Virus record (IMG/VR): IMGVR_UViG_3300026196_000002
Span: 1 to 58,351 of that record
Direction: 5' to 3' (one strand)
Source of the DNA: a virus
Lineage: Duplodnaviria; Caudoviricetes
Length of the DNA: 58,351 nucleotides
Positions within the stretch are counted from its first letter, which is position 1. Every line of letters starts with the position of its first letter. Shown here piece after piece: positions 29,330 to 54,152 of the stretch. The notes under the pieces were generated by a model. It was not told the origin of the DNA. It did no database searches and worked only from the letters and a program-made list of their open reading frames with translations. The position numbers were made by a program, and so were the translations under genes.

Positions 29330-29332
29330 GCT

Positions 29333-37198: not shown

Positions 37199-40100
37199 GT
37201 GAGCGCCGAACTTGAGAATATCCTTTTTGGCGATAGCCCGGAGATAAGCCCGCCAGAACCTTCCGTGGATGAACTTGCCGGGATTCTTGGGTTTAAGGAA
37301 GAGCCAGGGTTTATCAAGCAATCCATCTATGATGTCGCCGGGGGGGTGATTGACGCCGGGGAAACTTACGCTCGTGCTGGCCGGGCGCTTCCTGGCGGGC
37401 CTGAGACATACGACCTTGACGAAAACTCAATCTTCGGGAAAACGATAAAATGGGCCGAAAATTTTAAAAGGGACAACCCTAACTATGACCATGTTGACAG
37501 CGAAGGACTTCCGCGCTGGTGGCATGAGGGCTTGAGGAGCGTCACTTCTTCGGTGATTGCCGGTGCTCCATCGGCGGCAGCTGGCGCGGCGATTGGTGGC
37601 CCCCTGGGAGCGGTTGTTGGCTTTGGTCTTGGGGCGGGGACAACCTTTGGCCTGGCCGAATATGACCAGTTCATGCAAGAGGCGAAGCAATCCGGCATCA
37701 AGGAAGACGACGCGCAGAAATATGCTGTGCTTTCAGCCGTTGCTGAGGGCGGGTTTGAGGGGGTGACGGACATTTTACAAGGGCTGACCATGGGAGTGAC
37801 GACACCATTAACTCAGCCAGGAAAGGCGGCCTTGAAGCAGGGGGTCAAGCAGCTCTTTAAGACTCGCATTACATCGGTATTAAAGCGGCAGGTTGGGACC
37901 GGATTGCTTGAGGGCGGATCAGAGGTCGCTACGGCAGCAGTTCAGACTACATTGAGGAACCGTGTCGGGCTGAGTGAGCAAGATGCGATGATGGCAGCAG
38001 GGGAAGCCTTTGGTCCTGCGTTTGTCGCTGGGGTAATCTTTGGTGGATTTATCGAGGGCGGCAATATTGTCAATCGAAAGAAGATTGCCCGGGCGTTGAC
38101 CGACGAAAAGACCGATCCGGAACAACGCCTTGCTGCGGCAAGCGAAGTGGTAAAGACCTTGCGCCAGAGTGATAAGCGATTGGCTCAAATCTGGGAGCAG
38201 AGCGCACAGCAGGCTATTGCCAGGGGTGAAGCAATAGACCTCGGCCTTACCCCAGAAGAACTACAGGGGAAGATTGATAATCTGCGTCAGAACGCCAAAG
38301 CTTCGCCGAGAGCCAAGGAGAATTTAGATATCTTTGAGGAGGTGCAGGCACAGCAGACTGGAGAACCCGTTGCCAGCCAAGAGGATGAGATTGATACACA
38401 GATTTTGGAATCTGGGACGCCGACCCCGGAAGACTACTCCACCGTCAACCGTCGTATCCGCAATCTGAAGCGATACCGGAAACTGACAAAGAACCAACAG
38501 CGACAACTTGAAACGTTACAGAGGGTTCGCGCCGACTACGAACGTCGGCTGGATGCAAGCCAGGAACCTAACCTTGAAATAGGGGGCAATGAACAACCTC
38601 AGGGCGTTACAATGGCGGGTCAGGATGAACCGTCCATATTGAAGGAACGAGAGATACAAACACAATCTGAACAGCTTATTGCACAACCTGAACATGAGGG
38701 AGCGTGGGCCAGCAAAGACCCGGAAGTTGACAAGCGCCTTTTGCGTGAAGACTACCGCCAAAACGCTCCACAGTTTCTTGCCTCTATCTCGTTCAATGAG
38801 TTAGAACAGGGGCGCGTTGGGGCCGCGGTCGGAACTGACGATCTGGGCCGCAATGGATACCGGATGCCGACGGCGAACGAACCATGGGTTCAGGAAACCT
38901 CTGCCATGGTGGGCGGGATTGATAAGCTGCGCAATGCGTTAAACAGGGCTGTCGCCGGGGAGAAGCTAGGCAAGAACCAGCGCGAAGCCGTGAAAATTGT
39001 CCTTGACCAGTACGGGAAAGCGCGAACCGATGCCTTGGCCCCCGAAGTTCTTGAGAAGCGTCAGCAGCAGAAGGACACTTGGAGACTGACCAAATACAAG
39101 CCTGGAGATGTCCTGCCTCCCCCACCGGCTTATACTGAACCGGCCTTTGAAGACACAGAATATCATTCTGAATGGGATACTGAGTCGCGGCAGATCAGCG
39201 ACCTTTATAGCCAAGCTTCCGCGATTGACAAAGTTGCGGCTGACGATATTATTGGTTCAGTCAGTGATGACAACGGGCAGGTTGCCGCCGCGTTGTGGCA
39301 ATTTATCAAGGAGAATGAAAATGGGCGAGAAAGCCAAGGAGATAGCGGATTGGGTCAACGAGAACCGCAACCCGCAGAACGTGCGCAAAAAACCGCAGCC
39401 CCAGACCAGCCCGCCGAAGGAACAACCCAAGAAGTAGCTCCAGAACCCGACGGGCAGAATAAACTCTTCGCAACCCCCCCGACGTTCGGCAAGAAAGCAC
39501 AGCCGCAATCTCGCGCCACTAATGATGATCTGCAGTTCGACCAACTTCAGCAAGACGCGAAGCAGGGGGACCTTCTTACCCCTCAAACTACCAGCCAACA
39601 ACCAACCGGAAAGGAAACAAATGATCTGTCCGAACTGTCAAAGCCTGGGGCTGAAGCGCAACAAGAAGTGCAAGGTGTGCGGGCACAGGAGCAGGGAGTA
39701 ACACAGCCTGCCGATCTGTCAAGCGCAGACCCCGCCTCGAAGGCAGGAGAAGGAGCAGCAGTAGAAGAACTTGCCTCTTTCACCGAATATGGTACAGTAA
39801 AAGAACAGCGAGGGAGCAATGCTCAAGTCGAATTTAACTTCGATCTACCCGCCGACCATGGAAAAAATTCTGGACGGCAACAGCCCGCCGGATCCGGGGA
39901 CCTTCAGCCCGCCGGACGCGTATCGCTCTACCGCCGCAAAGGGCTCCCTCCCACCCCCCGCAACATCGCCGCCAGCCTCGAAACCCAAGTAGACCGCGTT
40001 CAGACCGGAACCTTTAAAATCGGCCTGAAGAAGATCCTGTCCGCCGCCGACGCTGCGCATGTTTTTGCCCCCTTGCGCAAGTATGCCAAAGAAAACTTCG

Positions 40101-43100
40101 CGGTTCTAGTCCTTGACAAGGGCAATCAGCCCCTCGCCGTCCTCGACATTTCCACCGGGTCCACCACCGCCTCTATCGTGCACCCGCGCATCGTCGCCGG
40201 GGCCGCCCTGGACGTCCCAGGGGCGGCTTCGGTGTGGCTGGCCCATAACCATCCTTCCGGGAACCCAGCCCCCTCGCAGGAAGATAAGGAGATCACCGCC
40301 CGCCTCGAAGATCTATTGCGTGGTAGTGGGGTGGAAATTGCGGGAAGTGTTATTGTCGGCAAGAACGGAGAATTCACCAACATCGGCAGAACCAACGTCC
40401 CGCGAAAGCCCACCATTGCCAGGAGGAACCTTGATATCCCCAAGATGGATGATCGGCTCGCCAGAAACCCGACCGGAGAAGCCAGGGCGATTTCCTCCGC
40501 CGGGGACGCTGCGACGCTTTTTGCTACCCAGGGTTACGCCAACCGTGTGGATGGGGTGTTGCTGCTCAACGCCAAAAACGAACCGGTCGGCTGGGTGGAG
40601 ATGACAACGGCAGAAATGAAGTTGTTACGAACGGGCAGTAAGGAAAAGGGGTCCGGTCTGCTTTCCCGCGCCCTTTCCCAGTCGAACGCCGTCGCCTTCG
40701 TGGTGCGGATGAAGCGCAGCGCCCCGCGTTCCCCCCTGGCTGGAAGCGTGGAAGCCGCCACCAATATGGCGAATTTTGCCGCACTCAATGGCTCCAGGAT
40801 GCTCGATGTAATCACCGATGACGGAAAGGGCGCGTTTGTCTCCCTGGGAGATCAGGGTTTGTTGCCAAGTGGCGGGGGGGTGATGTACTCCCGCAAGACC
40901 GGCCAGAATGCAGCAGAAGGCGACCCACAAAGCCCCGGCATCCGTTACGGGACCGCTCCAGACAGCACCGATGCCCCAAAAATCACCATCGCCCAAGTCC
41001 AATCTGAGGTCCGCGACTTCCTGAAAAAAGGCTACGACAACCTGACCAAGCTCGGGAAACTTAAGGTTGTGCAAAGCGCGGAAGAGCTAGGGATAAACCA
41101 CGGCAAAAAAACGCTCTTCTCGAAGAAAACCAACACGGCGTCTGAAGCGTTTAAGAAATGGTTCGGCGACAGCAAAGTGGTTGATGAAAACGGTGAACCG
41201 CTGGTGGTTTATCATGGGACAAATAAAGCGGATCATCGAGAAGCGCCAACTGATAAAGGATTTTTTGTCACGTCCTCAAAAGAAATGGCGAATAGTTATA
41301 CAAATACGAGAATATCGCAATTGCGCGATATGAAAACTCGCGCAACTACAACAGAAGGGAAGATAAAATCTTACGAAAAACAGGCAAAACGCGCAGTTTT
41401 CCCTGTGTATATAAAACTAGAAAATCCGTTTATTTGGGGGAATGGAGTTGACAGGGATTTATCAAAACCGTGGGCAGATTTACATCAAGCATGGAATTTT
41501 GAAACGAATAGTAAAGAGGGCGTTTTTTACAAGATGTTGGGAAGGCCATCACTTGAACAGTTGCAAGAAGCCTTCTCCAGGATAAGAGGCCAAAAACAAC
41601 CAAAATCCACTGTGGCAGCAATGGAAATGTTGTTGAGAATGCAAGGTGTTTATGGAGGCAGGACAGATGCAGAGTATTTTATCGGTGCGCAAGGTTCTGA
41701 GTATTTGACTAAAGACCTTAAGATATTTTTGGAAGGGCTAGGCTTTGATGGAATAGAATTTACAGACAACATTAAAACAAATTATGGGGTTAAATTTGAA
41801 GAAGGGAAAACCTATGTCGCCTTCTTCCCAACCCAGATCAAGTCCGTCTACAACAAGGGAGCCTTTGACCCGGAAAACCCGAATATCCTTTACTCCAAGA
41901 GCGGAGACGTCGCTGGCGTCTATAATGACGGGACTATCACCCTGATCGCCGACCGGATGAATAAAGGTGACGCAGAATATCTCATGCGGCACGAAGGTCT
42001 GCACATGCTGATGAGGGAAGATGAGGTATTCTCCGCCAAGCGTGATGAGATATTGGCGCAATTCAAATCTCTTAAAGAGGCAAGTAAGAGAGTCCGTGAC
42101 GCTTATGCCAGGGTCCCGGAGGAGACCAAAAAGGGCTATCTTGACGAAGAGGCTTTAGCTTATTTTGTTGAGTCGAAGGATAACCATAATCACAGTATCG
42201 TTAGAAAACTAATCGCCGCCGTCAAAGCCTGGATGCTGCGGCATGGTATCCCTGTGACCAAGTTGACAGAGGCTGACTTTGTGGCTCTGGTTAGCCAGGG
42301 CGTGAGGTCGTTTGCAAGCCATGGGAAACCCATCACCGATGCCATGAGCTCCGACGTGATGCAAACGCAACCTCTGGGTAAAAAGACGCAAGAACAGCAA
42401 CCTGACCAAGAACAGTTAAAGTCATGGTTCAAAAAATCGAAGGTGGCCAACCCCGACGGTAGCCCAAAGGTTGTTTACCACGGAACCAACGCCGAGTTTA
42501 CTGTATTCCAGCCATCAGGGCGCGGGATATTCTTCTCCGACTCAAAGGAAGTCGCAAGTAACTACACCGAGCAATACCGGGCGGAAAAGTCGGTCAACGA
42601 CGGGATTGTGATGCCAGTTTACCTTTCGCTGCAAAACCCGGTTGAAATGACCTTTGACGGTGGCCGGTCGATTGCGTCGGCGGTTAAGGAAGCGCGGGAC
42701 ACCGGTAATGACGGGGTGATTGTCAAAAACTACCCTGACAGCTACGGCGGCAAAGATTCGGTTGCCGATATGTATATTGTTTTTGAGCCGACACAAATTA
42801 AGTCTGCACTTGGGAATGGTGGTGCATACGATGCAAAAAACCCGGATATTTTGTACAGTAGGCGGCCAGTTGGTGGAGTTGGCCCGGCCCGTTCTGTAAT
42901 TGAAAAGGCTGGCCCAAGAGTAAAAAACACGATTGACTATTTACGCATGAAGTTCCAAGACAAATTCATTCCATTGAGTAGGGCACAGGAGGTATTGCAA
43001 GGGCAGGGGTGGGTAAAGACCACCGAGAACGACGCATACCGGGCAGAGGAAGTTTTCCACGAGAAGGCGACAGGGCGGCTTGAAGACTTCTACAATGGGA

Positions 43101-45604
43101 AGGCGGAACCGCTGGTCAAGAAGATTGAGGAGAGCAGCGTTTCCGTCGATGAATTAGAAGATTACCTTTATGCCAGATTTGCCCCACAACGAAACGCCTA
43201 TATCGCCTCGATCAATGAGGACATGCCGGATGGCGGGTCTGGGTGGACGAACAAAAAAGCAAGAGATATCCTTGATAAATTTGATGCCGAAGGGAAAACT
43301 GCAGAACTAGAACTCCTCGCTGCCGATGTGCGAGACATAACCAAAATGCAGCGGGACATCATCAGGAGCGAGGGTCTTGAGCTTGACGAGACAATGGATG
43401 CGTGGGAGCTGTCAAACCCTGATTACATCCCCCTAAAGGGTGGTAAGGAAAGCCGGGGGAAGGGGATCGGAACTGGGTATAATGTTAAGCGGTCCGGGAC
43501 GAAAAAGGCGCTGGGGCGGAGAAGTGAGGCAACTGCTTTACTCGCTCATCTGTTTGATCAAGCCGGGGCGACGATTGTCCGGGCAGAAAAGGCCAAGGTT
43601 GGCCGAGCCTTCCTGAAGATGGTCGAGGAAAACCCAAATCCCGAGCTGTGGAAAGTTTACGACCCGAAGCGGCCGGAGACTCTGCCAACCTCGCGGAAGC
43701 TGACCGACAATCCGGAAGTTAAGAGAATCAAGAAAAAGCTAGACCGGCGCAATTATGCCCTGAACCGGGCGACAGAACAGCGGACAATCAGCAAGCTACA
43801 GGAAGAAATTTTCGCCCTGAAAATGGAGCTGATGGGCACCCGCGATAAGGTTGTGCGGGATATCCTCGATGCTCGGCTGCTGACCGGCGATAATGTCATG
43901 GCGGTGACCCGCGAGGACGGCACGGTGGTTTATATCGATATCATCGATGACGACCTGGCCAGGGTCATGAAAAATCTGACGCCGAACCAATATGGGAAAG
44001 TCACCAAGGCCCTCGGCACCGCAACGCGCTACCTGTCAAGGATGAGCACCATTTTTAACCCTGAGTTTGTCGTGACTAACTTCGAGCGGGACATCCAGAC
44101 GGCAATGGTGAACCTTAGCGGAGAGCATAATACTAAACTCGCCAAGGAGGTTTTAAAGGGAGTCCCTGGCGCATGGAAGGGGATTCATGACGCCCTGAAG
44201 GGGAAGGACAGTGGGAGCGATTGGTCCCAGTGGTTTGTCCGGTATAAAAGGGCCGGTGCGCAGGTTTCTTTTATGGATTTGCGCGGGGTGGAACATTGGC
44301 AGGCTAAACTAAAAAAGTTGAGCGACAAAGACGGTATCATTACAGCGACAAAAGGGAAAATTGCCCAGGTGGGAAACTTGATTGACCGGATGAACGGAGC
44401 CACGGAAAATGCTGTGCGGCTCTCCGCTTTCCGTAAAGGGATTGAAGCCGGGATGAGCGAATCGGACGCGGCCAGCCTCGCCAAAAACTTGACGGTTAAT
44501 TTTAACCGGAAGGGAGAGTTAGGCCCGGCCATGAACGCCCTTTATATGTTCGCCAATGCTGGTGTTCAGGGTTCTGCTCGGATGTTTGGCGCGTTGAAAC
44601 ACAAGCGGGTACGGAAGATGATGGGGACCGTTGCCGTTATGGCTTTTGGCCTGGCGGAAATGAACCGCCTTGTCGGGGGGGATGATGATGACGGGGAAAA
44701 CAAGTGGGATAAAGTGAGTGATTTTGAAAAACAGGTCAATTTTGTCTTCAAAACTGGGGACGGAGAATTTAAAATCCGGCTGCCATATGGATATAACGTC
44801 TTTGTCGCAGCAGGATACGCACTAAGCGACATTTTTCATTACGCTCAAGGGGATGGTGGCAAATCTCCCGTACAGGTCGCTAGGTTCATGCAGGCGGCCA
44901 TTATGAACGCCTTTAACCCATTGGGCGGCGATGAGGGGATATTGAAAATCATGGCACCAACCCTGGCCGATCCGCTGGTTGAAATTGCAACCAATGAAAA
45001 TTTCATGGGCAGCAAGATAATGCCTGAGAACTTCCCCTTTGGGGCGCAGAAGCCTGATAGTCAATTGTATTTCAGGAATGTTTCAGCCCCATCGAAGGTT
45101 GTTGCGGAATTCCTCAACGAAATAACTGGTGGGAGCAAATGGGAATCCGGGGCGGTTGATATTTCTCCGGAGACAATTGACCACTATTTTGATTTTGTTC
45201 TCGGTGGTCTTGGCCGCACAATCCGCAGGACAGCGAACGTGCCAGCCCTGGCACTGGAAGACAGCCTGAAAATAAAAGACATTCCGTTCATCAGGCAAGT
45301 ATACCAAGAAGCTTCCCCGCAAGTTGACCAGTCCCGCTTTTATGATAATCTGAAAAGTATCGCAGCATCCCGTGCTGCGCTGAAGGAAATGCCATTGGCT
45401 GACAAGAGGGAATACCGTATTAAACATCCCGAGGCGCGGTTGTACAGGCTGGCAAATTCCTATCGGAGATCGTTAAGCAATCTGCGCAAGCGTCGGTATG
45501 CCTTGTTGGACGCGGGGAACAACGAGGCTGCGAAAAGGGCAGAAGAGCAGATGCAGAAGGTTGCCAAGCGGTTTAATGGGATTTACAATGCCAGAACCGA
45601 TTAG
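37199..45604 (+). CDS. Large polyvalent (probably injected) protein: JAB/RadC, two ART-like domains, HExxH metallopeptidase, LPD38-like C-terminus
   Basis: WLAHNHPSG..PSQED (about 40240); two copies of WFxxSKV.....P.VVYHGT...PTQIKS (about 41150-41890 and 42420-42860); RHEGLH (41990); NFNRKG..LYMFANA. Confidence 0.85.
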   Translation: MSAELENILFGDSPEISPPEPSVDELAGILGFKEEPGFIKQSIYDVAGGVIDAGETYARAGRALPGGPETYDLDENSIFGKTIKWAENFKRDNPNYDHVDSEGLPRWWHEGLRSVTSSVIAGAPSAAAGAAIGGPLGAVVGFGLGAGTTFGLAEYDQFMQEAKQSGIKEDDAQKYAVLSAVAEGGFEGVTDILQGLTMGVTTPLTQPGKAALKQGVKQLFKTRITSVLKRQVGTGLLEGGSEVATAAVQTTLRNRVGLSEQDAMMAAGEAFGPAFVAGVIFGGFIEGGNIVNRKKIARALTDEKTDPEQRLAAASEVVKTLRQSDKRLAQIWEQSAQQAIARGEAIDLGLTPEELQGKIDNLRQNAKASPRAKENLDIFEEVQAQQTGEPVASQEDEIDTQILESGTPTPEDYSTVNRRIRNLKRYRKLTKNQQRQLETLQRVRADYERRLDASQEPNLEIGGNEQPQGVTMAGQDEPSILKEREIQTQSEQLIAQPEHEGAWASKDPEVDKRLLREDYRQNAPQFLASISFNELEQGRVGAAVGTDDLGRNGYRMPTANEPWVQETSAMVGGIDKLRNALNRAVAGEKLGKNQREAVKIVLDQYGKARTDALAPEVLEKRQQQKDTWRLTKYKPGDVLPPPPAYTEPAFEDTEYHSEWDTESRQISDLYSQASAIDKVAADDIIGSVSDDNGQVAAALWQFIKENENGRESQGDSGLGQREPQPAERAQKTAAPDQPAEGTTQEVAPEPDGQNKLFATPPTFGKKAQPQSRATNDDLQFDQLQQDAKQGDLLTPQTTSQQPTGKETNDLSELSKPGAEAQQEVQGVRAQEQGVTQPADLSSADPASKAGEGAAVEELASFTEYGTVKEQRGSNAQVEFNFDLPADHGKNSGRQQPAGSGDLQPAGRVSLYRRKGLPPTPRNIAASLETQVDRVQTGTFKIGLKKILSAADAAHVFAPLRKYAKENFAVLVLDKGNQPLAVLDISTGSTTASIVHPRIVAGAALDVPGAASVWLAHNHPSGNPAPSQEDKEITARLEDLLRGSGVEIAGSVIVGKNGEFTNIGRTNVPRKPTIARRNLDIPKMDDRLARNPTGEARAISSAGDAATLFATQGYANRVDGVLLLNAKNEPVGWVEMTTAEMKLLRTGSKEKGSGLLSRALSQSNAVAFVVRMKRSAPRSPLAGSVEAATNMANFAALNGSRMLDVITDDGKGAFVSLGDQGLLPSGGGVMYSRKTGQNAAEGDPQSPGIRYGTAPDSTDAPKITIAQVQSEVRDFLKKGYDNLTKLGKLKVVQSAEELGINHGKKTLFSKKTNTASEAFKKWFGDSKVVDENGEPLVVYHGTNKADHREAPTDKGFFVTSSKEMANSYTNTRISQLRDMKTRATTTEGKIKSYEKQAKRAVFPVYIKLENPFIWGNGVDRDLSKPWADLHQAWNFETNSKEGVFYKMLGRPSLEQLQEAFSRIRGQKQPKSTVAAMEMLLRMQGVYGGRTDAEYFIGAQGSEYLTKDLKIFLEGLGFDGIEFTDNIKTNYGVKFEEGKTYVAFFPTQIKSVYNKGAFDPENPNILYSKSGDVAGVYNDGTITLIADRMNKGDAEYLMRHEGLHMLMREDEVFSAKRDEILAQFKSLKEASKRVRDAYARVPEETKKGYLDEEALAYFVESKDNHNHSIVRKLIAAVKAWMLRHGIPVTKLTEADFVALVSQGVRSFASHGKPITDAMSSDVMQTQPLGKKTQEQQPDQEQLKSWFKKSKVANPDGSPKVVYHGTNAEFTVFQPSGRGIFFSDSKEVASNYTEQYRAEKSVNDGIVMPVYLSLQNPVEMTFDGGRSIASAVKEARDTGNDGVIVKNYPDSYGGKDSVADMYIVFEPTQIKSALGNGGAYDAKNPDILYSRRPVGGVGPARSVIEKAGPRVKNTIDYLRMKFQDKFIPLSRAQEVLQGQGWVKTTENDAYRAEEVFHEKATGRLEDFYNGKAEPLVKKIEESSVSVDELEDYLYARFAPQRNAYIASINEDMPDGGSGWTNKKARDILDKFDAEGKTAELELLAADVRDITKMQRDIIRSEGLELDETMDAWELSNPDYIPLKGGKESRGKGIGTGYNVKRSGTKKALGRRSEATALLAHLFDQAGATIVRAEKAKVGRAFLKMVEENPNPELWKVYDPKRPETLPTSRKLTDNPEVKRIKKKLDRRNYALNRATEQRTISKLQEEIFALKMELMGTRDKVVRDILDARLLTGDNVMAVTREDGTVVYIDIIDDDLARVMKNLTPNQYGKVTKALGTATRYLSRMSTIFNPEFVVTNFERDIQTAMVNLSGEHNTKLAKEVLKGVPGAWKGIHDALKGKDSGSDWSQWFVRYKRAGAQVSFMDLRGVEHWQAKLKKLSDKDGIITATKGKIAQVGNLIDRMNGATENAVRLSAFRKGIEAGMSESDAASLAKNLTVNFNRKGELGPAMNALYMFANAGVQGSARMFGALKHKRVRKMMGTVAVMAFGLAEMNRLVGGDDDDGENKWDKVSDFEKQVNFVFKTGDGEFKIRLPYGYNVFVAAGYALSDIFHYAQGDGGKSPVQVARFMQAAIMNAFNPLGGDEGILKIMAPTLADPLVEIATNENFMGSKIMPENFPFGAQKPDSQLYFRNVSAPSKVVAEFLNEITGGSKWESGAVDISPETIDHYFDFVLGGLGRTIRRTANVPALALEDSLKIKDIPFIRQVYQEASPQVDQSRFYDNLKSIAASRAALKEMPLADKREYRIKHPEARLYRLANSYRRSLSNLRKRRYALLDAGNNEAAKRAEEQMQKVAKRFNGIYNARTD

Positions 45605-45664: not shown

Positions 45665-46897
45665 GAAAAACCTCCTTGGATACCCCGTCCCTTGGGGCGG
45701 GGAGGAAAAGGGGTTGCACGTCAGTGCAATCGGTGTTATATTATCCTATATGAAACGAACCGTATCCGTCAAGCTGAATACGACCACTGAGCAGTCATCA
45801 TACCTTTCTGCGCTACAGGCCGAGTTCGCCGTCGTCTGCAATCTTGTGGTCCCTTTCGCCCGCGGCAACCGCTGCTGGAACCGTGTTGCGCTACACCATT
45901 TGGCCTATTACCCGGTGAGGGAGGTCTCCCCGCTTGGATCGCAAATGGTCTGCAATGCCATCAAGGCCGTAGCCAATGCCTACAAGGGGCTGAAGCTCAG
46001 GCGCAAGGATGAGGTCCCGACCGTTGTCTTCAAGCCCACCGGGTGTGTCCATTTCGATGCCCGCACCTTCTCCGTCAAGGGCGATATCGTTTCGCTCTAC
46101 ACCATGGCCGGGCGGCAGGCCGTCCCGATGTTGCCCGGTAAATTCCAGGCAGAATATCTGGCCAAAGGAAAAATCAAGGAGGCCGAACTTCTCCGCAAAC
46201 GCAACACTTGGTTTCTGAATATTGTCCTCGACCTCCCCGATGCCCCGCCCGCGACTGGTGGCGGCAGCATGGGGGTAGACGTGGGCGAGAATAACCTGGC
46301 TGCCACCTCCGCCGGAAAGATCATCGGTGGCAGTCGTCTCCGTCACACCCGCGACAAGTATCTTGCCCTTCGTCGTCGGCTTCAACGCAACGGCTCGCAG
46401 AGTGCCAAACAACTGCTCTGCAAAGTCTCCGGTCGCGAAGCCCGGCACATGAAGCATGTCAACCACGAAGCCAGCAAGGCCATCGTCGCGGAAGCCCTCA
46501 CTTCGGGCGCTTCGACCATTGTTCTGGAAGACCTCACGCACATCCGCAAAAACATCAAGGCTGGCAAACGCGTTCGTGCCCGGCTGCATCGGTGGGCGTT
46601 CGCACAGCTTCAATCCTTCGTGCGCTACAAGGCCGAAGGTGTGGGGCTGGCAGTGGCCATCGTCGATCCCGCCTACAGTTCGAAGACTTGCGCGGTGTGT
46701 GGTTGTCTCGGTACTCGGTTGAAGCATCGTTTTTCCTGTTCTGCCTGTGGAAACCTGGCGCACAGCGACTTGAACGCGAGTCGGAATCTTGCCAAGTTGG
46801 CTCCCTCTGCCGAGGGTTCCAGGGTCGCCGTAACCCGGCCTTATGTGGCAACTTCGGTTGACCATAATGCTCCGTCGCTTGCGGCGGGGTAGTTTAC
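45665..46897 (+). mobile_element. IS200/IS605-family element, TnpB only (IS1341-like); left boundary approximate
   Basis: Left hairpin CCCCGTCC-CTT-GGGGCGGGG (about 45683-45702); right hairpin CTCCGTCGCTTGCGGCGGGG followed by TAGTTTAC; no tnpA. Confidence 0.8.
45750..46892 (+). CDS. tnpB: RNA-guided endonuclease TnpB
   Basis: RuvC motifs GVDVG, IVLEDL, HSDLNASRNL; zinc finger CAVC/CSAC. Confidence 0.93.
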   Translation: MKRTVSVKLNTTTEQSSYLSALQAEFAVVCNLVVPFARGNRCWNRVALHHLAYYPVREVSPLGSQMVCNAIKAVANAYKGLKLRRKDEVPTVVFKPTGCVHFDARTFSVKGDIVSLYTMAGRQAVPMLPGKFQAEYLAKGKIKEAELLRKRNTWFLNIVLDLPDAPPATGGGSMGVDVGENNLAATSAGKIIGGSRLRHTRDKYLALRRRLQRNGSQSAKQLLCKVSGREARHMKHVNHEASKAIVAEALTSGASTIVLEDLTHIRKNIKAGKRVRARLHRWAFAQLQSFVRYKAEGVGLAVAIVDPAYSSKTCAVCGCLGTRLKHRFSCSACGNLAHSDLNASRNLAKLAPSAEGSRVAVTRPYVATSVDHNAPSLAAG

Positions 46898-47646
46898 TGC
46901 GCCTCCCCAAAAATTGAAGTCAGGGGCCCGCTCACAGCCCTGATTTTGTCCTTGTCAAGGTATCTCGACGCCAACTTCCAACCGTACAGCTCCAGGCCAA
47001 GCCGTTCCTTCGCCTCCACCGCCGCTCCATCAACATACTGCCCGTCAGTGTAAAGGTCGAACCCGCACAAGACAACCTCGTCGGCCATCAGGTGAGCCAG
47101 CCACATCGCCAGAAAAGGGGATGATTGGAAAAACCAGCAGGCTGTCTCATCGGCGTCAATCAGATAGTCGCTATACTGCCCCCAGATAGAAATGACCCTC
47201 TTGGCCCTCGCCATCTCCTTTACCTCGCCAACCCACCTATCAACAAACACGGCGATATCGGCCTGGTAGTATTTCATCGGTCGCCAGTTGACGCTGATCA
47301 GAAGATCTTTATCTGTCCGTCCGACATTGCTCATGTCTCCAATGAGCGACGTCCCGGCGCCCATGACGATAGCGCGGCCTTTGTGGGTTTTTTTAAGCAC
47401 CATAACTGACGGCTTATCTTCGCCGCCTTTGCGCACATCGACAATCTTGAACGGTCTGGTGTCTTGGCCAAGTGCCAGCTTTTTCACCCCGTCCTCGATG
47501 ACCGGAACCGGCAGGGCGCAGACCTGTTTCTCCTGGTCGGCCCAGAGGACGTTTTTCAAAAAAGGGGATTTTTCGTCACCATCGAGGATAACGAGGAAAT
47601 TATTAGATCCGAGGATGTCCGGTCCGTAGTAGCGCAGATTAGTCAC
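46894..47646 (-). CDS. DUF115/MptE/Maf-like nucleotide-transferase-fold protein
   Basis: AIVMGAGTSL...ISVN...EVVLCGFD; the stop codon is supplied by the IS end. Confidence 0.6.
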   Translation of the reverse strand: MTNLRYYGPDILGSNNFLVILDGDEKSPFLKNVLWADQEKQVCALPVPVIEDGVKKLALGQDTRPFKIVDVRKGGEDKPSVMVLKKTHKGRAIVMGAGTSLIGDMSNVGRTDKDLLISVNWRPMKYYQADIAVFVDRWVGEVKEMARAKRVISIWGQYSDYLIDADETACWFFQSSPFLAMWLAHLMADEVVLCGFDLYTDGQYVDGAAVEAKERLGLELYGWKLASRYLDKDKIRAVSGPLTSIFGEAQ

Positions 47647-48098
47647 TTTCTATACACCCCAATCTTCTTCAGCCGGTTAACCACCACCATGTAGTGACCA
47701 ATCCCCAACTCATCCGCGATTTCCTTCGGCTTCATACCAGATACGTAGAGTTCACGAATCTTGGCGTCCAAGTTGTGAGCCTCCTCGCTGTAGCCGTCGC
47801 CATCGCTGAGAGTGTCCGCAACCGAGGCGTCAACGCTGACCGGAGGCTGAATGCCCTGTTTTTTGGCACCGTCAACCCGCACCTTGCCATAAATATCCGC
47901 ATATGGAGCACCGCAATTAGGGCACTCTATCGCGTCACCAGTAACCCCGGAGTGTTCTGGGAAACTGGCCCACCCGTTTCCCTTGAATGGTTCATTGAGA
48001 GCGAACATACTACCATTGGGGGTCTTGTCTGGGTCAAACTTGTCGGTCGTTTGGTGGTAGGGCCCACCGCAATTGTTTCTACATAATATGTTGGTCAT
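47643..48098 (-). CDS. Zn-binding protein with C-terminal HTH
   Basis: CRNNCG, CPNCG; GMKPKEIADELGI. Confidence 0.7.
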   Translation of the reverse strand: MTNILCRNNCGGPYHQTTDKFDPDKTPNGSMFALNEPFKGNGWASFPEHSGVTGDAIECPNCGAPYADIYGKVRVDGAKKQGIQPPVSVDASVADTLSDGDGYSEEAHNLDAKIRELYVSGMKPKEIADELGIGHYMVVVNRLKKIGVYRK

Positions 48099-48185
48099 AC
48101 CATTCCTTTCTGTGGGGCATTATGCCCCACACCTAATACCAATTAAACCAAATGGCTTATAAACCGTTTATAGGTCTATAGAGCC

Positions 48186-48204
48186 CGCCTAATCCCTGTT
48201 GTAC
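48186..48204 (+). other. Candidate attI-like primary insertion site of array 2
   Basis: CGCCTAAT-CCCT-GTTGTAC; no attC hairpin; matches the array 1 end motif. Confidence 0.6.
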
Positions 48205-48206
48205 GG

Positions 48207-48389
48207 CTACACTTCTGGAAGCGCTGCCATTTCCTCATCGGTCATGTCGAACCTCTTGAACCGCAGCGTTATTTCCTCTCCCTCATCCATGCTATCCTCT
48301 GTGCAAATAAGTTCCCCATCAACATTAACCGGCACTGGTATCCATGAGTCGTGCCCTTCTTCCCAATAAAACAATCTCGCCTTTTTCAT
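48207..48389 (-). CDS. Cassette ORF, acidic
   Basis: MKKARLFYWEEG...MTDEEMAALPEV. Confidence 0.75.
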   Translation of the reverse strand: MKKARLFYWEEGHDSWIPVPVNVDGELICTEDSMDEGEEITLRFKRFDMTDEEMAALPEV

Positions 48390-48495
48390 CTGTATTCCCC
48401 TTTCGTAGGTAAGCCGTACAACCAGCAAATCAAGCGGATGAAAATACTGGTGTGGTTTCTATTCAGCGGTCATCCGTCACCGCTTATCATGGGCG

Positions 48496-48645
48496 TTATG
48501 TAGCTTTAAAAATTTCAGCTAATTTTTCTTCTAACCACTTTACTTCCCTATATGACCCTTCTCCGGTCAACTCAATAGTCCAGGCTGTTGACTCTGTATT
48601 CGTGTTTGTTATGGGCTTCTGTTTTATAATGGTCGTTGCTTTCAT
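48496..48645 (-). CDS. Cassette ORF, 49 aa
   Basis: Manual translation MKATTIIKQKP...LAEIFKAT; RBS GAGG; stop codon in the core site. Confidence 0.65.
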   Translation of the reverse strand: MKATTIIKQKPITNTNTESTAWTIELTGEGSYREVKWLEEKLAEIFKAT

Positions 48646-48778
48646 ATCCACCTCTGCCGCATAACCAGTAAATCAACCGGACGGGAATTAGCTTCTGTTC
48701 TTAGGCTGTTCAACTCGGTGGTCCTCCATCGTCGGCAATCCGCCGGTTATCGCCATCCGTTAGCCAGCCTTCGGCAAA

Positions 48779-49069
48779 TTAAATACCCTCGCCAATAAAA
48801 TGCTCTGATATTTTGTCTGCGGTTTCGGGGTCAAATAGTTTTTCGGTGATAAACCAAATCACTTCCTCAACACCTTCGCGCATTCCTACTTTACGAAACT
48901 CGTCAAGTTGCACATCGCAACGTGCGTGAAACTCTTGCTGCCACTTTTCAACCTCTGCGATCAACCACTCAAGCGTGTCTTGGTCATCAACTCCCCAATG
49001 TGGCGTTGTTGCTAATTGCTCAGTGTGTTTTGCGAGCTTCTTCGCTTTTTCCAACAGTTCCATTTTCAA
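48779..49069 (-). CDS. Cassette ORF, hypothetical
   Basis: Fills the cassette; WLIAEVE motif. Confidence 0.7.
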   Translation of the reverse strand: MKMELLEKAKKLAKHTEQLATTPHWGVDDQDTLEWLIAEVEKWQQEFHARCDVQLDEFRKVGMREGVEEVIWFITEKLFDPETADKISEHFIGEGI

Positions 49070-49164
49070 TGCCTCTCAGAATAAGGCTAACAATTAGTTC
49101 AAGCGGATGGAACAAAGCGTCTGTCTCTTAGTCACCGCCCATCCGCCACCGCTTAACATTGGCG

Positions 49165-49416
49165 TTAAATTGCTTGCATATCTTTCAGCGCCAACGCCAT
49201 TGCTTTCGCCGGGCCGGTGTACTTTGTAATGCACTTTCGGCAAGGAACAACCTGTATCCCTGGCACCTTTTCCATACATCCACCAGTGGGCAATGGCGGG
49301 TTATCCATATCAGTTGTCGTAAATTGGCACTTAACCGTCTGCTCCGACTGTCTTTTTATGCCTAGCAGGGCACCGCATTCTGAGCAGAAAAATTGAAGAA
49401 TAAGGTTATTTCTCAT
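49165..49416 (-). CDS. Cassette ORF, Zn-finger
   Basis: CSECG...PCRKC; RBS AGGAG. Confidence 0.7.
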   Translation of the reverse strand: MRNNLILQFFCSECGALLGIKRQSEQTVKCQFTTTDMDNPPLPTGGCMEKVPGIQVVPCRKCITKYTGPAKAMALALKDMQAI

Positions 49417-49512
49417 AATGTTGCTCCTTTCAAGAGCGCAATTTAACCAACTAATCAACCGGACGGAAGAACCGTCTGCGCTAAATGCCCGATCCAGGGC
49501 ACCGCCGCTCGT

Positions 49513-49728
49513 TTACTTTTGCTCATTGCCTAGCCTCCTCATTCTGAATTGAACCCTAAAATTATCACCCGCGATTGTTGCTATTGCTGTACCGTCGTCG
49601 TGTTCTTTCAGCAACTCTATTACTCTAAAATCTACTTCATGTATCAACCCACAATCGCAACATTTCATTTCGTATTTATTCATTTGTGGCTTTACCCACT
49701 CATTACTTCTTACCTTGTAAAACCCCAT
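49513..49728 (-). CDS. Cassette ORF, CCDCGL-H family small protein
   Basis: EWVKP...KCCDCGLIHEVDF. Confidence 0.75.
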   Translation of the reverse strand: MGFYKVRSNEWVKPQMNKYEMKCCDCGLIHEVDFRVIELLKEHDDGTAIATIAGDNFRVQFRMRRLGNEQK

Positions 49729-49883
49729 AAACAACCCCTTATGTCTGCTTCGCAGCCACGCCGTTTTAAAATCTAACCAGTGCATCAAGCGGACGGAACA
49801 TACATCTGTTTTAGGCCGATTAATGCGGTAATAGTTTGTTGCTTCACGTCGCCGCAGCTTATGCGGGTCGTTAGCTGTTTAAT

Positions 49884-50081
49884 TTAAATCATTGATTCAA
49901 CGGTAAAATAAATGTCTGACTCTTTTTTATCCGGGTTAACCCTAATGTCCCACTCAAAATGCTCCATGAGTTTTTCCGCCGTTTCGCGGGAAATTCGCAG
50001 TAATAGTGTCTTGTCATCATCCTTTTGATTGTAAGGGTGGCGAGAAAGTATTCTTAACGCGTAGTCAACTTTATCTCCCAT
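49884..50081 (-). CDS. Cassette ORF, hypothetical
   Basis: 65-aa ORF with a weak RBS. Confidence 0.5.
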   Translation of the reverse strand: MGDKVDYALRILSRHPYNQKDDDKTLLLRISRETAEKLMEHFEWDIRVNPDKKESDIYFTVESMI

Positions 50082-50107
50082 ATTTATAACCTTTATGGAG
50101 GCACCAA

Positions 50108-50392
50108 ATGGACGAAATCAAAAAGCCAAACTTTGGAGAGTGTAACTTTGCTGAAAACACAGTTATCGCTGGCGGTGCTTTTAAAGAAAGGCCAGAAATA
50201 AAGCCCCTGAAAATAGCCACTCTCATTCTTGGTAATGTCCATATTGATGTGAAAATCAAAACAATTTCCGACCAAATTCTTACTGGTAAAGTTGTCAGCG
50301 TTGAACCCAAAAAAGAACTTCCACCTGAATTAGCCATAAATGACACGGTAGAATTCTCCTTTGACAATATTTGCAATATAAAAGACAGCTAA
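50108..50392 (+). CDS. Cassette ORF in canonical integron orientation
   Basis: RBS GGAGG; stop codon in AGCTAAC (R''). Confidence 0.7.
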   Translation: MDEIKKPNFGECNFAENTVIAGGAFKERPEIKPLKIATLILGNVHIDVKIKTISDQILTGKVVSVEPKKELPPELAINDTVEFSFDNICNIKDS

Positions 50393-50518
50393 CCATGAAA
50401 TCAACCGGACGGAAAATACGTCTGCCTAAATTTGATTAGCTCGGTGGTCCTCGTTGCGTAGCGCCGCCGCCGGTTATCACTACCGTTGTATTGCTTAATG
50501 TAAAGTCGGAGGCACATT

Positions 50519-50824
50519 ATGCCTATCGAACATGTTTGGGGTCTCGTTCTCGTTCTTGCTGGCGTTGCAATCCTCGCCGTCCTTGACGATATTCGGAGTA
50601 GAAGTTCGCTCAAGGAAGTTAATAATAAACTCTCTGCTCTCCGGGAGAAGATTGAAATTTGCGATAGCGAGCACAATAAAACCATCTCTAACCTCAAGAA
50701 AATACATTTTCAAGAAATTACCAAACTTAAAGAATCGATCTCTGAACTTACGGAAGAAAATAAAGAGCTTAAGCTTATGCCATGGCAAGCCGAGAAAAAC
50801 GAGCCTACGTACTACGGGGAATAA
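50519..50824 (+). CDS. Cassette ORF in canonical orientation; transmembrane segment plus coiled coil
   Basis: RBS GGAGG; bounded by GTTGTATTGC and GCAATACAAC. Confidence 0.7.
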   Translation: MPIEHVWGLVLVLAGVAILAVLDDIRSRSSLKEVNNKLSALREKIEICDSEHNKTISNLKKIHFQEITKLKESISELTEENKELKLMPWQAEKNEPTYYGE

Positions 50825-50897
50825 GCCGCAATACAACCATGCAATCAACCCGTCAATGTTTTTGTGCGTAGCGCCGCCGCCGGTTATCTTCACCGTT

Positions 50898-51035
50898 CTA
50901 TTCGTACTCGTCGGCGCTAATTCCTTCAACAGTTATCGCCCCGACTTGAAACTTAGCGACAACATCAATAGCCTCGTCTCCGCTACAGCCTGCTAGTACC
51001 TCTAAAAACTCTCGCAATGACAGATCTTCACTCAT
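50898..51035 (-). CDS. Cassette ORF, 45 aa
   Basis: Manual translation MSEDLSLREFLEVL...ISADEYE; RBS GAGGAG. Confidence 0.6.
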   Translation of the reverse strand: MSEDLSLREFLEVLAGCSGDEAIDVVAKFQVGAITVEGISADEYE

Positions 51036-51083
51036 CTATAAGTCTCCTCACACTTTAACCAGTAAATCAAGTGACGTTATGCG

Positions 51084-51290
51084 CTAAATACAGCTCTTGT
51101 GGTATTCGTCTTTTTTTTCTTCAATTTCGCCAATCGTGTGCTCAGTAATCTTGCATTCGTACTTGCCACCGCGCCATGTCTTTTCCACGTCAGCTGCATA
51201 GGCAGCAGAACCATAATTAAGATACGCGCCGACCACATAACTGTGACTTTCTTGGTCGCCCCACCTATAAGCAGTCACGACAAGAATCAT
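51084..51290 (-). CDS. Hypothetical phage protein
   Basis: VVTAYRWG...HSYVVG...RGGKY; ATGA-coupled to the DnaC-like gene. Confidence 0.75.
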   Translation of the reverse strand: MILVVTAYRWGDQESHSYVVGAYLNYGSAAYAADVEKTWRGGKYECKITEHTIGEIEEKKDEYHKSCI

Positions 51291-52183
51291 TTCATGCCCC
51301 CCCGCCGCCGATATGACTCCCAATTAAAAACCAACACCCTAGAATTTCCCTCGTAAAATCGATCTATTGCTCGCTCACTCAAATATACCTCAAGAGCCTC
51401 TGCTGGGAGATTGCTGATAATGATCGTTGGCCTCTGGGCCTCATAGCGCTCGTTGATCACCTCCGTCAGAAACATCTTTTCGGTTGCCGACCCGAACTGC
51501 ACTCCCACCTCATCGATCACCAGCAGATCTGGCAAGGCGAACTCATCGATAGCCGTCTGCTCATCCTCTTTGTTGTTCCAGGTCGCTTTCACTCGTCTGA
51601 CAATTTTGATCGCCGTCGAATGAATAGCGGTATAACCATTATTCATCACCTCATTACAAATTGCCGCAGACAACATATTTTTTCCTGTGCCATAGTTGCC
51701 GACCATACAAATGCTGTCACCAGCCGCCAGGCGATCCTCAAATGTCGCTGCATATCTCTCACAGAAGTGCAAAACCTTCTCTGCCTCCGGAGTTGGAGGT
51801 TTGTAATCATCGAATTTCACAGCAGCGAACCGACGGCCAATCCGACACCGCTCAAACCGAGCTTGGGTCTTCTCTTGCTCGCGTCTTTCTTTGTTTAAAA
51901 TTTCTTCCTTGGCAACCTTAGCCATAAGTTCTTCCGCCAGAGCATCGGCCTCTTCTTTGACGCACTTCGGGCAAAATTCTTCGCCGGTGTGCTCGGCAAT
52001 GATTAGTTCAACCCGGTGTTTCTCGCAGCTCTGCTGCGAAGCCCGGGGGATCGTTGATCCCATTCCGCATAGTGCCTGACCAATCGTCGCTGGTTCGCTT
52101 CCTGTTTGCTGAACCCTTTGCTTTCGCTCCTTGCGCTTTTTCTCCAGCCTCTCCTGGGCCGCCTGCCAGTCCCGCACCTCCAT
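51287..52183 (-). CDS. DnaC/IstB-like AAA+ helicase loader
   Basis: GNYGTGKN (Walker A), LLVIDEVG (Walker B), INERYE..PTIIISNL; start placed at the ATG with a GGAGG RBS. Confidence 0.9.
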   Translation of the reverse strand: MEVRDWQAAQERLEKKRKERKQRVQQTGSEPATIGQALCGMGSTIPRASQQSCEKHRVELIIAEHTGEEFCPKCVKEEADALAEELMAKVAKEEILNKERREQEKTQARFERCRIGRRFAAVKFDDYKPPTPEAEKVLHFCERYAATFEDRLAAGDSICMVGNYGTGKNMLSAAICNEVMNNGYTAIHSTAIKIVRRVKATWNNKEDEQTAIDEFALPDLLVIDEVGVQFGSATEKMFLTEVINERYEAQRPTIIISNLPAEALEVYLSERAIDRFYEGNSRVLVFNWESYRRRGGMK

Positions 52184-52832
52184 CACTCGGTCCTCCCTCT
52201 GGGTTCCTTCCTGGTTTCGGTTCACCATCCCTCCGCCAAAAATTGCGGATAGTCGCCGCATAGTCCTTATATTTCTTGCCCTTAGATGCGCAGTAATCGT
52301 TAACCTTGTCAATATAGCTTGAAAGCTGGTCTTCCCCCAACATCTCTTTTAACGATTTATGTTGTTTTTCGCACAGCCTGACATGGCTACCATATTTTTG
52401 TTTATTATCTGGTTTATTATCTGGTATATTATCTGGTTTATTATCTGGTTTATTATCTGGTATAGGTTCGGGGATTTTCTCACCTCGACTTGTGAATTTT
52501 CCCAACTCGATATTGGAAATTTCACAAATCCACTTTGACTCTTCAGCAAATGCGTACCATGCGGTCCTGTCGTACTTGTTGTTGTTATACTCTCCTTTAA
52601 CCAAAACACCTGAGTCAACAAGCGTTTGCAGGCAATATCTGATTTGGCTTTCCGTCCAAAAAGGGAAAATCTCCGTGAACGCCTGAACACTATTATAAGT
52701 CCATGTCCTTCCGTCATAATTATGACTACCATTCGCTCTGTTTTTTATTATCCAAAATTGGAAATTGGCGATAATAATCGCCTGGTTTACCCCATATCTA
52801 ACTGCCGTTCCAACATCGAATTGATAATTCAT
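52008..52832 (-). CDS. Phage replication initiator protein
   Basis: YGVNQAII...FWI.KN...DGRTWTYNS N-terminus; KYKDYAATIRNFW C-terminal domain; internal tandem repeats. Confidence 0.85.
   Translation of the reverse strand: MNYQFDVGTAVRYGVNQAIIIANFQFWIIKNRANGSHNYDGRTWTYNSVQAFTEIFPFWTESQIRYCLQTLVDSGVLVKGEYNNNKYDRTAWYAFAEESKWICEISNIELGKFTSRGEKIPEPIPDNKPDNKPDNIPDNKPDNKQKYGSHVRLCEKQHKSLKEMLGEDQLSSYIDKVNDYCASKGKKYKDYAATIRNFWRRDGEPKPGRNPEGGPSDGGAGLAGGPGEAGEKAQGAKAKGSANRKRTSDDWSGTMRNGINDPPGFAAELRETPG
52401..52460. repeat. Five 12-bp tandem repeats (TTTATTATCTGG); candidate origin iterons
   Basis: Five adjacent copies, one with a single substitution, inside the initiator gene as in lambda O. Confidence 0.75.
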
Positions 52833-53217: not shown

Positions 53218-53523
53218 ATGTCGAAAGAAACCTCTCAGAACGGCCAACCAAGCACAATCCCAGGGTTTGATGAATACCAACTAAAGATACTTATCAAAGA
53301 AGCTTTCAGTGAACATATCAGCACCGTCGGCTGTGCCCCAGCAAACAAAGAATGCCCCTTCTCAAGCGACGACCTTTACCTTATTCATAAGTTTGTCAAC
53401 ACATGGAATTCTGCAACAAAAATTGTTGGATCAGCAATTTTGATCGGCGTTCTCAGTGGGATTGGTTGGCTGGCAAAGATAGGTATTGAAGCTTGGAGGA
53501 CAGCGGGGGGGAACACGCCATGA
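53218..53523 (+). CDS. Putative holin-like membrane protein
   Basis: C-terminal transmembrane segment; coupled to the endolysin. Confidence 0.5.
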   Translation: MSKETSQNGQPSTIPGFDEYQLKILIKEAFSEHISTVGCAPANKECPFSSDDLYLIHKFVNTWNSATKIVGSAILIGVLSGIGWLAKIGIEAWRTAGGNTP

Positions 53524-54152
53524 AACTGAATTTCCTTATAGACCCTGGCCATGGCGGACGATTTACCGGAGCCGTCAGTCGTGGGGTGCAAGAAAAAGAC
53601 ATCAACCTCAATGTTGCTTCCCTGCTACAACGCGAACTGTCCCGCAAGGGCGTATTTGCTGGCATGACCCGCCTGGCTGATTATTCTCTCCGAGACGATC
53701 TCCAGGAAGATCTCCAAGAGCGCTGCAACATAGAGCACATGTCCCGTCCTGACCTGACGATCTCTATTCATTGCAACCAATCAGAGCACGAATCGGCAGG
53801 GGGATTTGAAATTTTCACCTCTCCCGGAGAAACCGACTCGGACGAATTCGCCACTGAAATTCTTGAGAGTTTCGCAAAACGCTTTCCTGACATCCGCCTG
53901 CGGAAAGATTTGAGCGACGGAGATCCGGACAAGGAAGCCAAATTCAAGATACTGACCGGTACTAACGGCCCCGCCGTTCTGGTGGAGCTGTGCTTTCTCA
54001 GTAACGACTTTGAACGCGAGTGGATTTTGAACCCGGAAACGCAACAGGCGGTTGCCGAGGCGATCTGTTCTGGGGTGGTCGGGCAATTCACCAATATGTG
54101 CAAGCTCTGCGGCGACAACTATAGTGGTAATTGCCGGGCTTGTTTGGGGTGA
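53520..54152 (+). CDS. N-acetylmuramoyl-L-alanine amidase (Amidase_3) endolysin
   Basis: IDPGHGG, EKDINL, ISIHCN, PAVLVELCFLSN. Confidence 0.93.
   Translation: MKLNFLIDPGHGGRFTGAVSRGVQEKDINLNVASLLQRELSRKGVFAGMTRLADYSLRDDLQEDLQERCNIEHMSRPDLTISIHCNQSEHESAGGFEIFTSPGETDSDEFATEILESFAKRFPDIRLRKDLSDGDPDKEAKFKILTGTNGPAVLVELCFLSNDFEREWILNPETQQAVAEAICSGVVGQFTNMCKLCGDNYSGNCRACLG

Follow-up and report, generated by a model that had tools for sequence, protein, structure and literature searches.

Integrons have been studied as bacterial devices, and phages have so far figured as occasional carriers of a few attC recombination sites. The virus record IMGVR_UViG_3300026196_000002 (Duplodnaviria; Caudoviricetes), all 58,351 nucleotides (nt) of which form the window analysed here, raises the question of what an array of such sites is doing between phage genes, when most of its open reading frames (ORFs) run against the sites. 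This array (array 2) occupies positions 48186-51082, downstream of the replication genes, and mirrors a larger one (array 1) elsewhere in the genome; both are internal, between phage genes of one strand, and together they hold 38 sites and take up 23% of the genome. We consider it probable that the two loci are integron platforms without an integrase of their own, which rely on the integron integrase (IntI) of the host acting in trans and owe their expression to read-through out of phage early operons.

A simple motif for the 5' arm of the repeats occurs 28 times in the window, compared to 0.86 expected; the matches are on the plus strand in 48.4-50.9 kb and on the minus strand in 9.2-19.7 kb. 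A home-made hairpin scan returned 271 candidates and was too noisy for use. The sites were defined with a covariance model, R1, which was built from an alignment of 18 clean array-1 sites only and includes no array-2 site; its structure comprises four pairs in the R boxes and 11 in the L boxes, and the 5' arm carries a bulged C. Pairing at these 15 modelled pairs is 91.1%, compared to 81.5% in shuffles, and none of 500 shuffles reached the observed values. Compensatory (two-sided) changes were found in eight pairs, and sliding of the partners lowers pairing in the alignment to 28-53%; RNAalifold by itself recovered just the L-box helix. Over the whole window with filters off, R1 gave 41 matches at E<=1, namely 31 on the minus strand (9183-19731), seven on the plus strand (48416-50901), two reverse-strand echoes of about 15 bits and one unrelated match (E 0.55). 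Scores exceed 54 bits for 26 of the 38 sites, and several array-1 sites reach just 19-47 bits. The matched repeats have the build of attC sites, i.e., an imperfect palindrome R''-L''...L'-R' with conserved AAC/GTT cores, paired L boxes, and an asymmetry between the strands (the 5' arm has the bulged C, and scores are 58-77 bits for one strand and at most 15 bits for the other).

The model was then compared with known integrons. The phage P1 isolate MH445380 is named as a class 1 integron carrier in PMC9892861, and in 50 kb of its sequence R1 gave seven matches at E<1e-3, which are all seven attC sites of the class 1 arrays. Six of them immediately follow the 3' end of an annotated cassette gene, on that gene's strand (on the minus strand two adenylyltransferase genes, a chloramphenicol gene, psp and the first gene of the array; on the plus strand a dfr gene). 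The seventh match (29278-29337, minus) lies 3' of an unannotated stretch, which is the place of qacH according to the cassette order in the available text of PMC9892861. In bacterial genomes, an exact attC pattern found at least 120 stretches, 80 of which were scored with R1. The top scores belonged to Desulfuromonas, Desulfuromusa and Desulfuromonadales records, and scores were also high on contigs labelled Shewanella and Lentisphaeria. For example, one of these genomes (G002) carries a full integron integrase (476 bits versus a cut-off of 265), and on the Desulfuromonas contig concerned (L222) this intI (13478-14437, minus) is followed by an attI ending in GTTAGGT and by attC sites at 14976, 15627, 15977 and 19650, all on the plus strand (R1 83, 74, 33 and 64 bits), with cassette ORFs on the plus strand in three of four cassettes. 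The attC sites of the Desulfuromonas/Desulfuromonadales loci L222, L217 and L215 score 55-83 bits, the 33-bit site of L222 aside, and are about 100-120 nt long. It should be noted that intI is divergent from the cassettes in L222, whereas in L217 and L216 (Desulfuromonas sp. BM508 and Desulfuromusa kysingii) an intI fragment is co-directed with them, attI being 3' of intI.

Because the matches fall on the strand of the cassette genes in MH445380 and L222, the R1 strand is the conventional top strand; and because R1 matches sites next to their intI, the phage sites are of the attC type of Desulfuromonas-type bacteria. Judged by their sequence, the phage repeats are thus genuine attC sites. The preliminary description had counted eight sites in array 2, five of them intact-looking, had placed their top strand on plus and had singled out 49085-49170 as a textbook attC. 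R1, calibrated on integrons with annotated genes and intI, agrees on each point: it puts the top strand on plus and gives five intact and two degenerate sites, beside the stub 51053-51082 and a half-site or attI-like head at 48186-48204, and its match spans 49085-49170 end to end.

The junctions between cassettes bear on how the arrays were assembled. When the sites are read in top-strand order, R' of one and R'' of its successor show perfect complementarity over the 4 variable nt in 30 of 36 adjacent pairs; R'' and R' of the same site are perfect in 0 of 38 cases, and the best of 10,000 permutations was 9. Array 2 has four perfect junctions out of six, one with three matching positions of four, and one that fails at the degenerate site 49441-49531, and its head likewise fits R'' of the first site. 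This rule is the mark of circular-cassette insertion at G/TT and proves site-specific exchange. The rule is symmetric, and is therefore silent on which attC travels with which ORF. In a blastn comparison of array 2 with the rest of the window, likeness was confined to the attC sites and ended at the site borders; thus, duplicated cassettes are useless for pairing attC sites with ORFs. The polarity of the strands is taken from the calibrated model.

At the 5' end of the top strand, both arrays open with CGCCTAAT-N4-GTT (48186-48200, plus; 19941-19955, minus), and the pattern CGCCTAATNNNNGTT has exact matches in the genome only at these two heads. In both heads, the R box is a fit for R'' of the first cassette of the array concerned. 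Among 222 fetched loci, CGCCTAATNNNNGTT occurs once, at 689-703 of L217, and this is the attI position, with the 3' end of intI on one side and the first cassette on the other; the attC of that cassette scores 81 bits, and its R'' fits the core at the attI position. Related cores are present in L215 and L222: a second Desulfuromonadales integron has CCGCCTA-N6-GTT, with spacing equal to that of the phage heads, and the version in L222 is longer-spaced. On this likeness to three bacterial examples, the array heads appear to be attI-like sites. At the distal ends, array 1 has GTTATACGCT and array 2 has GTTATGCGCT, with R' alike, as would be expected of the right half of an original attI displaced by inserted cassettes; the similarity of the distal ends suggests a common origin of the two arrays. 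Just outside the head of array 2 lies a 19-nt palindrome, GTGGGGCATTATGCCCCAC (48112-48130). The corresponding palindrome-like pattern GGCATTWTGCCCCAC matches solely there and at 19970-19984 (three matches versus 0.44 expected), so that the element stands just outside both heads, upstream of the next phage gene.

The sense of the phage cassette genes was assessed with codon log-odds trained on long phage genes, with start codons and with ribosome-binding motifs. In array 1, the best ORF is on the plus strand, antisense to the attC top strand, in 31 of 31 cassette gaps. In array 2, the best ORF is on the minus strand in six of eight gaps; one gap contains a plus ORF only (50519-50824), and one has both senses (49884-50081, minus; 50108-50392, plus). 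Overall, almost every phage cassette contains a single tiny ORF, which in 37 of 39 cassettes is antisense to the top strand of attC, and the arrangement of a complete integron, with ORFs co-oriented with the top strand and read from the cassette promoter Pc, is not what is found here. Twelve bacterial loci gave 29 canonical and six inverted gaps under a cruder longest-ORF rule; the comparison of canonical to inverted gaps in the phage and in bacteria (2:37 vs 29:6) has a Fisher p of 2e-12. GC skew tracks the strand of the ORFs, and the codon use of the cassette ORFs is phage-like. These counts bear out the statement of the preliminary description that most array-2 ORFs are on the minus strand, in line with the initiator and DnaC-like genes, and support its view that a second locus of the same inverted design argues for a system over a single chance capture, to which the shared type of head and distal end can be added. 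In 18 of 31 array-1 cassettes, the ORF is terminated by a TAA that falls within the reverse-complemented R'. In the more far-reaching reading given below, this TAA/C stop inside R' hints that cassettes can arise via attC insertion at stop codons of resident small phage genes.

In other IMG/VR sequences, exact attC patterns found contigs with just 1-7 sites. One contig (L012, 1390-2437) has four tandem sites with ORFs that end 5 nt inside R' and a canonical-to-inverted ratio of 0:3, and another (L010) has 0:2; 18 further loci gave 13:23 with the longest-ORF measure, which is noisy in GC-rich DNA. Pooled viral contigs (13:28) differ from bacteria (29:6) with p 9e-6, although some of these contigs may be proviruses with host flanks. 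The antisense trend across viral contigs suggests a wider rule. Several contigs, L012, L232, L233 and L265 among them, have small arrays of 3-7 attC matches, and in most of these contigs the ORFs are antisense by the crude measure.

The cargo comprises about 43 ORFs with a median of 62 amino acids (aa) in cassettes of about 300 nt, and 22 of the products have an isoelectric point below 5.5. Weak family matches were to a zinc ribbon, HTH_3, an MqsA-like family and the VC1465 family, and five PHROG families without a named function were each matched weakly by one of the 34 array-1 ORFs. The 94-aa protein of 48779-49063 has 13 homologues among 5.8 billion proteins, one of them with DUF551, a phage domain. 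For 50519-50824, an Atlas look-up gave unnamed viral clusters and one automatic label 'immunity protein', which is a lead only. Two array-1 proteins have homologues in other viral contigs, and the homologue in one of these (L009) is a small gene of the usual kind, with no attC sites on either side of it. No homologues of cassette proteins were found in the fetched bacterial integron loci. With some homologues in viral contigs and none in those loci, the cargo looks phage-derived.

Some individual cassettes can be described further. The array-1 cassette at 11605-12101 (plus) contains two overlapping ORFs, one of 106 aa without a family and then one of 59 aa. The 59-aa ORF is probably the source of the weak HTH_3/MqsA-like matches, whose member the scans do not name; the layout is reminiscent of a toxin-antitoxin pair of the sort by which chromosomal integrons are stabilised. 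The VC1465 family, 'Xer recombination activation factor', is weakly matched (E 2.9e-4) by one of the 34 array-1 proteins, perhaps the HTH protein already mentioned; this match is a lead only. By eye, the acidic proteins of 15052-15240 (plus) and 48207-48389 (minus) share a similar C-terminal motif (…MTEDEYASLPEF… and …MTDEEMAALPEV); BLAST at 1e-3 did not pair these two proteins.

The genome layout is lambdoid-like, and a direct terminal repeat of 127 nt (exact) closes the record, which is rated 100% complete. Searches of the whole record with TIGR02249 and PF00589 gave no candidate for an integron integrase or other tyrosine recombinase, and no intI adjoins either array; control searches with these models were positive in 14 of 14 genomes. 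Array 1 is placed 3' of the genes for SSB, NinB and a Holliday-junction resolvase and 5' of the terminase gene. The initiator gene upstream of array 2 contains six tandem 12-nt iteron-like units (GTTTATTATCTG-like) at 52388-52483, resembling in this respect the lambda-type origin, which lies inside its initiator gene. The structural block closes with a single ORF (37199-45604, plus). A TnpB-like gene (45714-46892, plus) with Cas12f1-like TNB and OrfB_IS605 domains separates the tail genes from the leftward block; no TnpA was seen. The coordinates of the arrays, their parts and the neighbouring genes are given in Table 1.

Table 1. Positions of the two arrays, of the parts of array 2 and of surrounding phage genes in the window; cassette ORFs are based on ORF lists, codon log-odds and ribosome-binding motifs, and array-1 sites are given by their low coordinate.
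Feature	Position	Strand	Remarks
SSB, NinB, Holliday-junction resolvase (rightward early block)	7248-8934		array 1 next, then terminase at 21372
Array 1	9183-19955	-	attI-like head 19937-19955(-) and 31 attC sites; 34 small ORFs, all plus
Array-1 site starts, first 16	9183, 9528, 9799, 10122, 10490, 10773, 11042, 11400, 12096, 12400, 12737, 12998, 13317, 13641, 13976, 14304	-	
Array-1 site starts, other 15	14582, 14921, 15247, 15568, 15899, 16405, 16714, 17036, 17348, 17642, 18324, 18655, 18979, 19316, 19614	-	
Tail and other structural genes	up to 45604	+	last ORF 2,801 aa
Leftward block	46894-52832	-	replication initiator, DnaC-like loader, array 2
First phage gene after array 2 in transcription direction	47643-48098	-	151 aa; no family
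Array 2, attI-like head	48186-48204	+	CGCCTAAT-CCCT-GTTGTAC; TTGTAC complementary to R'' of first attC
attC site 1, intact	48416-48501	+	R1 58.8 bits, E 8e-13
attC site 2, intact	48659-48765	+	R1 61.0 bits
attC site 3, intact	49085-49170	+	R1 63.6 bits; blastn 93% identity to array-1 site 14304-14389(-)
attC site 4, degenerate 3' arm	49441-49531	+	R1 28.6 bits; R' mismatches next R''
attC site 5, intact	49771-49876	+	R1 69.5 bits; blastn 88% identity to site 9183-9287(-)
attC site 6, intact	50387-50491	+	R1 76.7 bits
attC site 7, internally deleted	50831-50901	+	R1 23.3 bits, E 0.002
Stub, R''-L'' then directly GTTATGC	51053-51082	+	30 nt; distal end of array 2
Array-2 cassette ORFs, first four on minus	48207-48389, 48496-48645, 48779-49063, 49165-49416	-	60, 49, 94 and 83 aa
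Array-2 cassette ORFs, other three on minus	49513-49728, 49884-50081, 50898-51035	-	71, 65 and 45 aa
Array-2 cassette ORFs on plus	50108-50392, 50519-50824	+	94 and 101 aa
Small ORF upstream of array 2	51084-51323	-	same strand as DnaC-like loader
DnaC-like loader	51287-52312	-	PF01695 4e-15; phrog_50 5e-68
Replication initiator	52008-52832	-	phrog_11233 1e-36
Amidase	53493-54152		

The stretch was found in three soil-metagenome runs (X1, X2 and X3) from three studies; the uncovered parts of the stretch in X2 and X3 carry no information. In X1, which is the likely source of the record, independent contigs link the arrays to phage genes at even depth; for example, a single Logan contig (17,735 nt) starts at 49774, passes the end of the genome and reaches the first array-1 site. 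The repeated attC sites cause assemblers to break, and an apparent skip in X1 (48687 to 50467) and a joint between 'opposite strands' were rejected as real variants, being repeat effects of the two arrays. X2 is represented by eight listed pieces with 0-1 differences and the same junctions. X3 contains a relative that differs by a few percent and shares the cassettes of 49869-50894 and the replication genes. This relative is without exactly 33 nt (51049-51081), which is the distal attC stub of array 2, and has 24 nt (two units) fewer in the iterons. A listed X3 piece (233 of 473 letters) ends at 49869, one base before the G/TT of site 49771-49876, and this hints at a different neighbouring cassette.

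We propose that the arrays would have been built, and could still be reshuffled, by the integron integrase of the infected host acting in trans. The ORFs of array 2 would be expressed by read-through from the replication operon, and those of array 1 by read-through from the SSB/NinB/resolvase operon; in both arrays the ORFs are encoded on the same strand as the phage early genes next to them. With the inverted build, the recombinogenic bottom strand would be the non-template strand of transcription, and, if the iterons near 52.4 kb serve as a bidirectional origin, it would be the lagging-strand template in both arrays. According to published work on Vibrio cholerae (PMC13108822), folding of attC and excision of cassettes are favoured when the bottom strand is carried on the lagging-strand template. 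The same build would silence phage cassettes placed behind the Pc of a bacterial integron and, conversely, bacterial cassettes that enter the phage. The cargo would be a bank of small phage accessory proteins, and anti-defence or host-takeover roles are a guess.

Several observations weigh against this proposal. The lagging-strand argument rests on an assumed origin and an assumed replication mode. Scans for promoter-like and terminator-like sequences gave chance levels (7 vs 8.5 expected and 8 vs 7.0, respectively), so that co-transcription is something we can only infer; no minus-strand terminator-like site was found between 52244 and 46800, in a scan that was at chance level overall, and no RNA run was among the runs matching the stretch. 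No recombination event was observed. DNA folds of the array-2 bottom strands are not clearly more stable than those of shuffles, with z < -2 for one site of seven (-2.24, -0.85, -0.33, -1.47, +0.27, -1.73 and +0.29 for sites 1-7); because these scores are weak, the case for attC rests on covariation and homology, and not on hairpin stability. We infer a Desulfuromonas-type bacterium as the host solely from the likeness of attC and attI. The cassette proteins are without known function, none being above the family cut-off in Pfam, PHROGs or NCBIfam. Among relatives, three with a DnaC-like gene have 0 attC sites, and only one of 80 terminase relatives (at most 56% identity), the closest, has an attC site, a single one. 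Finally, two of the seven sites of array 2 are degenerate and its last is a stub, and part of array 2 is therefore decaying.

Decay, the sites of just 19-47 bits in array 1, the lack of arrays in the available relatives and the recovery of the same sequence from another sample (X2) are what one would expect of relics, acquired in one or a few events, either out of a host integron or through insertion at GTT sites, and now amounting to fixed phage genes with decaying, non-recombining attC sites; here the degenerate sites 49441-49531 and 50831-50901 and the stub 51053-51082 count in favour. We regard this explanation as unlikely, yet deserving real weight. Drift would erode the junctions, whereas 30 of 36 are still perfect; more than two-thirds of the sites (26 of 38) remain above 54 bits, and an attI-like head has been kept in both arrays. 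The cargo is phage-like rather than bacterial (PHROG matches, viral homologues and none in the fetched bacterial integron loci), and the listed X3 piece ends exactly at a cassette border.

Two other explanations were weighed. The repeats could be phage-specific structured intergenic elements, acting in RNA processing, termination or translation control, that are attC-like by resemblance only; hairpins do stand between nearly all the small ORFs and would be in the mRNA, and the phage has no integrase. This is very improbable, given that R1 recognises genuine attC sites from two integron types that are unrelated and has no other match in the 50 kb of P1, that the exchange of half-sites between neighbours has no explanation at the RNA level, and that the heads match a bacterial attI core. 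An assembly chimera, or provirus ends that include a piece of a bacterial chromosomal integron, would have to be considered since assemblers break at repeated attC sites. However, both arrays are internal, between phage genes of the same strand, the terminal repeat of 127 nt closes the record, the Logan contig links, at even depth, 49774 with the first array-1 site, X2 has the same junctions, and the cassette ORFs have phage-like codon use; we consider such an artefact extremely improbable.

A more far-reaching version of the integrase-less platform proposal is put forward tentatively, and its parts, taken jointly, are on balance doubtful. It holds that phages of integron-bearing hosts keep platforms of their own, each an attI mimic with cassettes but without an integrase, and that a phage-only pool of opposite-sense cassettes circulates on host IntI. 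Such cassettes would be expressed in phages and silent once captured by a bacterial integron, and the pool would be to phages what the 'defence biobank' integrons are to bacteria, its contents probably being proteins for anti-defence or takeover. If host IntI does act on the arrays, the phage would possess a modular, shuffling store of small genes tied to a stress-induced host enzyme, phages and bacteria would have a way to exchange cassettes, and the sense relative to attC would separate who expresses what. If cassettes do form at stop codons, the origin of cassettes becomes open to direct study. The 43 tiny ORFs are a candidate list for anti-defence screens.

Regarding known systems, the small-gene cluster of array 1 occupies a place that would correspond to the nin-like region of lambdoid phages, with small accessory genes between recombination and late genes; unlike lambdoid nin-like clusters, each small gene of the phage arrays is bounded by attC sites. 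The chromosomal integrons of Desulfuromonas/Desulfuromonadales have the attC type and, by sequence likeness, the attI core CCGCCTA-N6-GTT in common with the phage, and differ from it in having intI and larger cassettes. Bacterial cassette ORFs are mostly on the attC strand (29 of 35 gaps in 12 loci), in contrast to those of the phage. Single cassettes are known from genomic GTT sites (the route of attG and of SALINs, i.e., single attC sites lacking integron integrases; bioRxiv 10.1101/2022.09.11.507474), and, according to the available text of that source, this also lets cassettes enter integron-less DNA. The viral contigs L009 and L014 have single antisense sites between small genes. In L014, the closest terminase relative (56% identity), the attC-like site (3140-3226, minus; 42.9 bits; antisense) lies between small plus-strand ORFs upstream of the terminase gene, i.e., in the array-1 position. 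The phage arrays differ from insertions of this kind, as far as the available text describes them, in starting at attI-like sites and not at a bare GTT, and in having dozens of cassettes.

The closest comparison is with the attC clusters without an integron integrase (CALINs) of phages, defined in PMC9892861 (2023) by at least two sites. That study found 17 CALINs in 10,705 phages, and five of six tested phage sites recombined with IntI1; the sense of the ORFs relative to attC is not discussed in its available text, and its supplementary tables may list site numbers and orientations. Our literature searches returned no paper on large or inverted phage arrays, and none in which the words 'inverted cassettes' occur alongside integron and attC. 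With 7 and 31 sites at a spacing of about 250-700 nt and no intI, the two arrays described here are CALINs as well, sharing with those reported, as far as the available text goes, the occurrence of attC sites without intI in phage genomes. They differ in comprising 38 sites in two mirror arrays over 23% of a complete genome, with host-like attI heads, cassettes of about 300 nt and ORFs of about 62 aa that are systematically antisense. What is new here is the scale, the presence of two arrays that mirror each other and have attI-like heads, the tiny size of the cassettes and an antisense build that is systematic.

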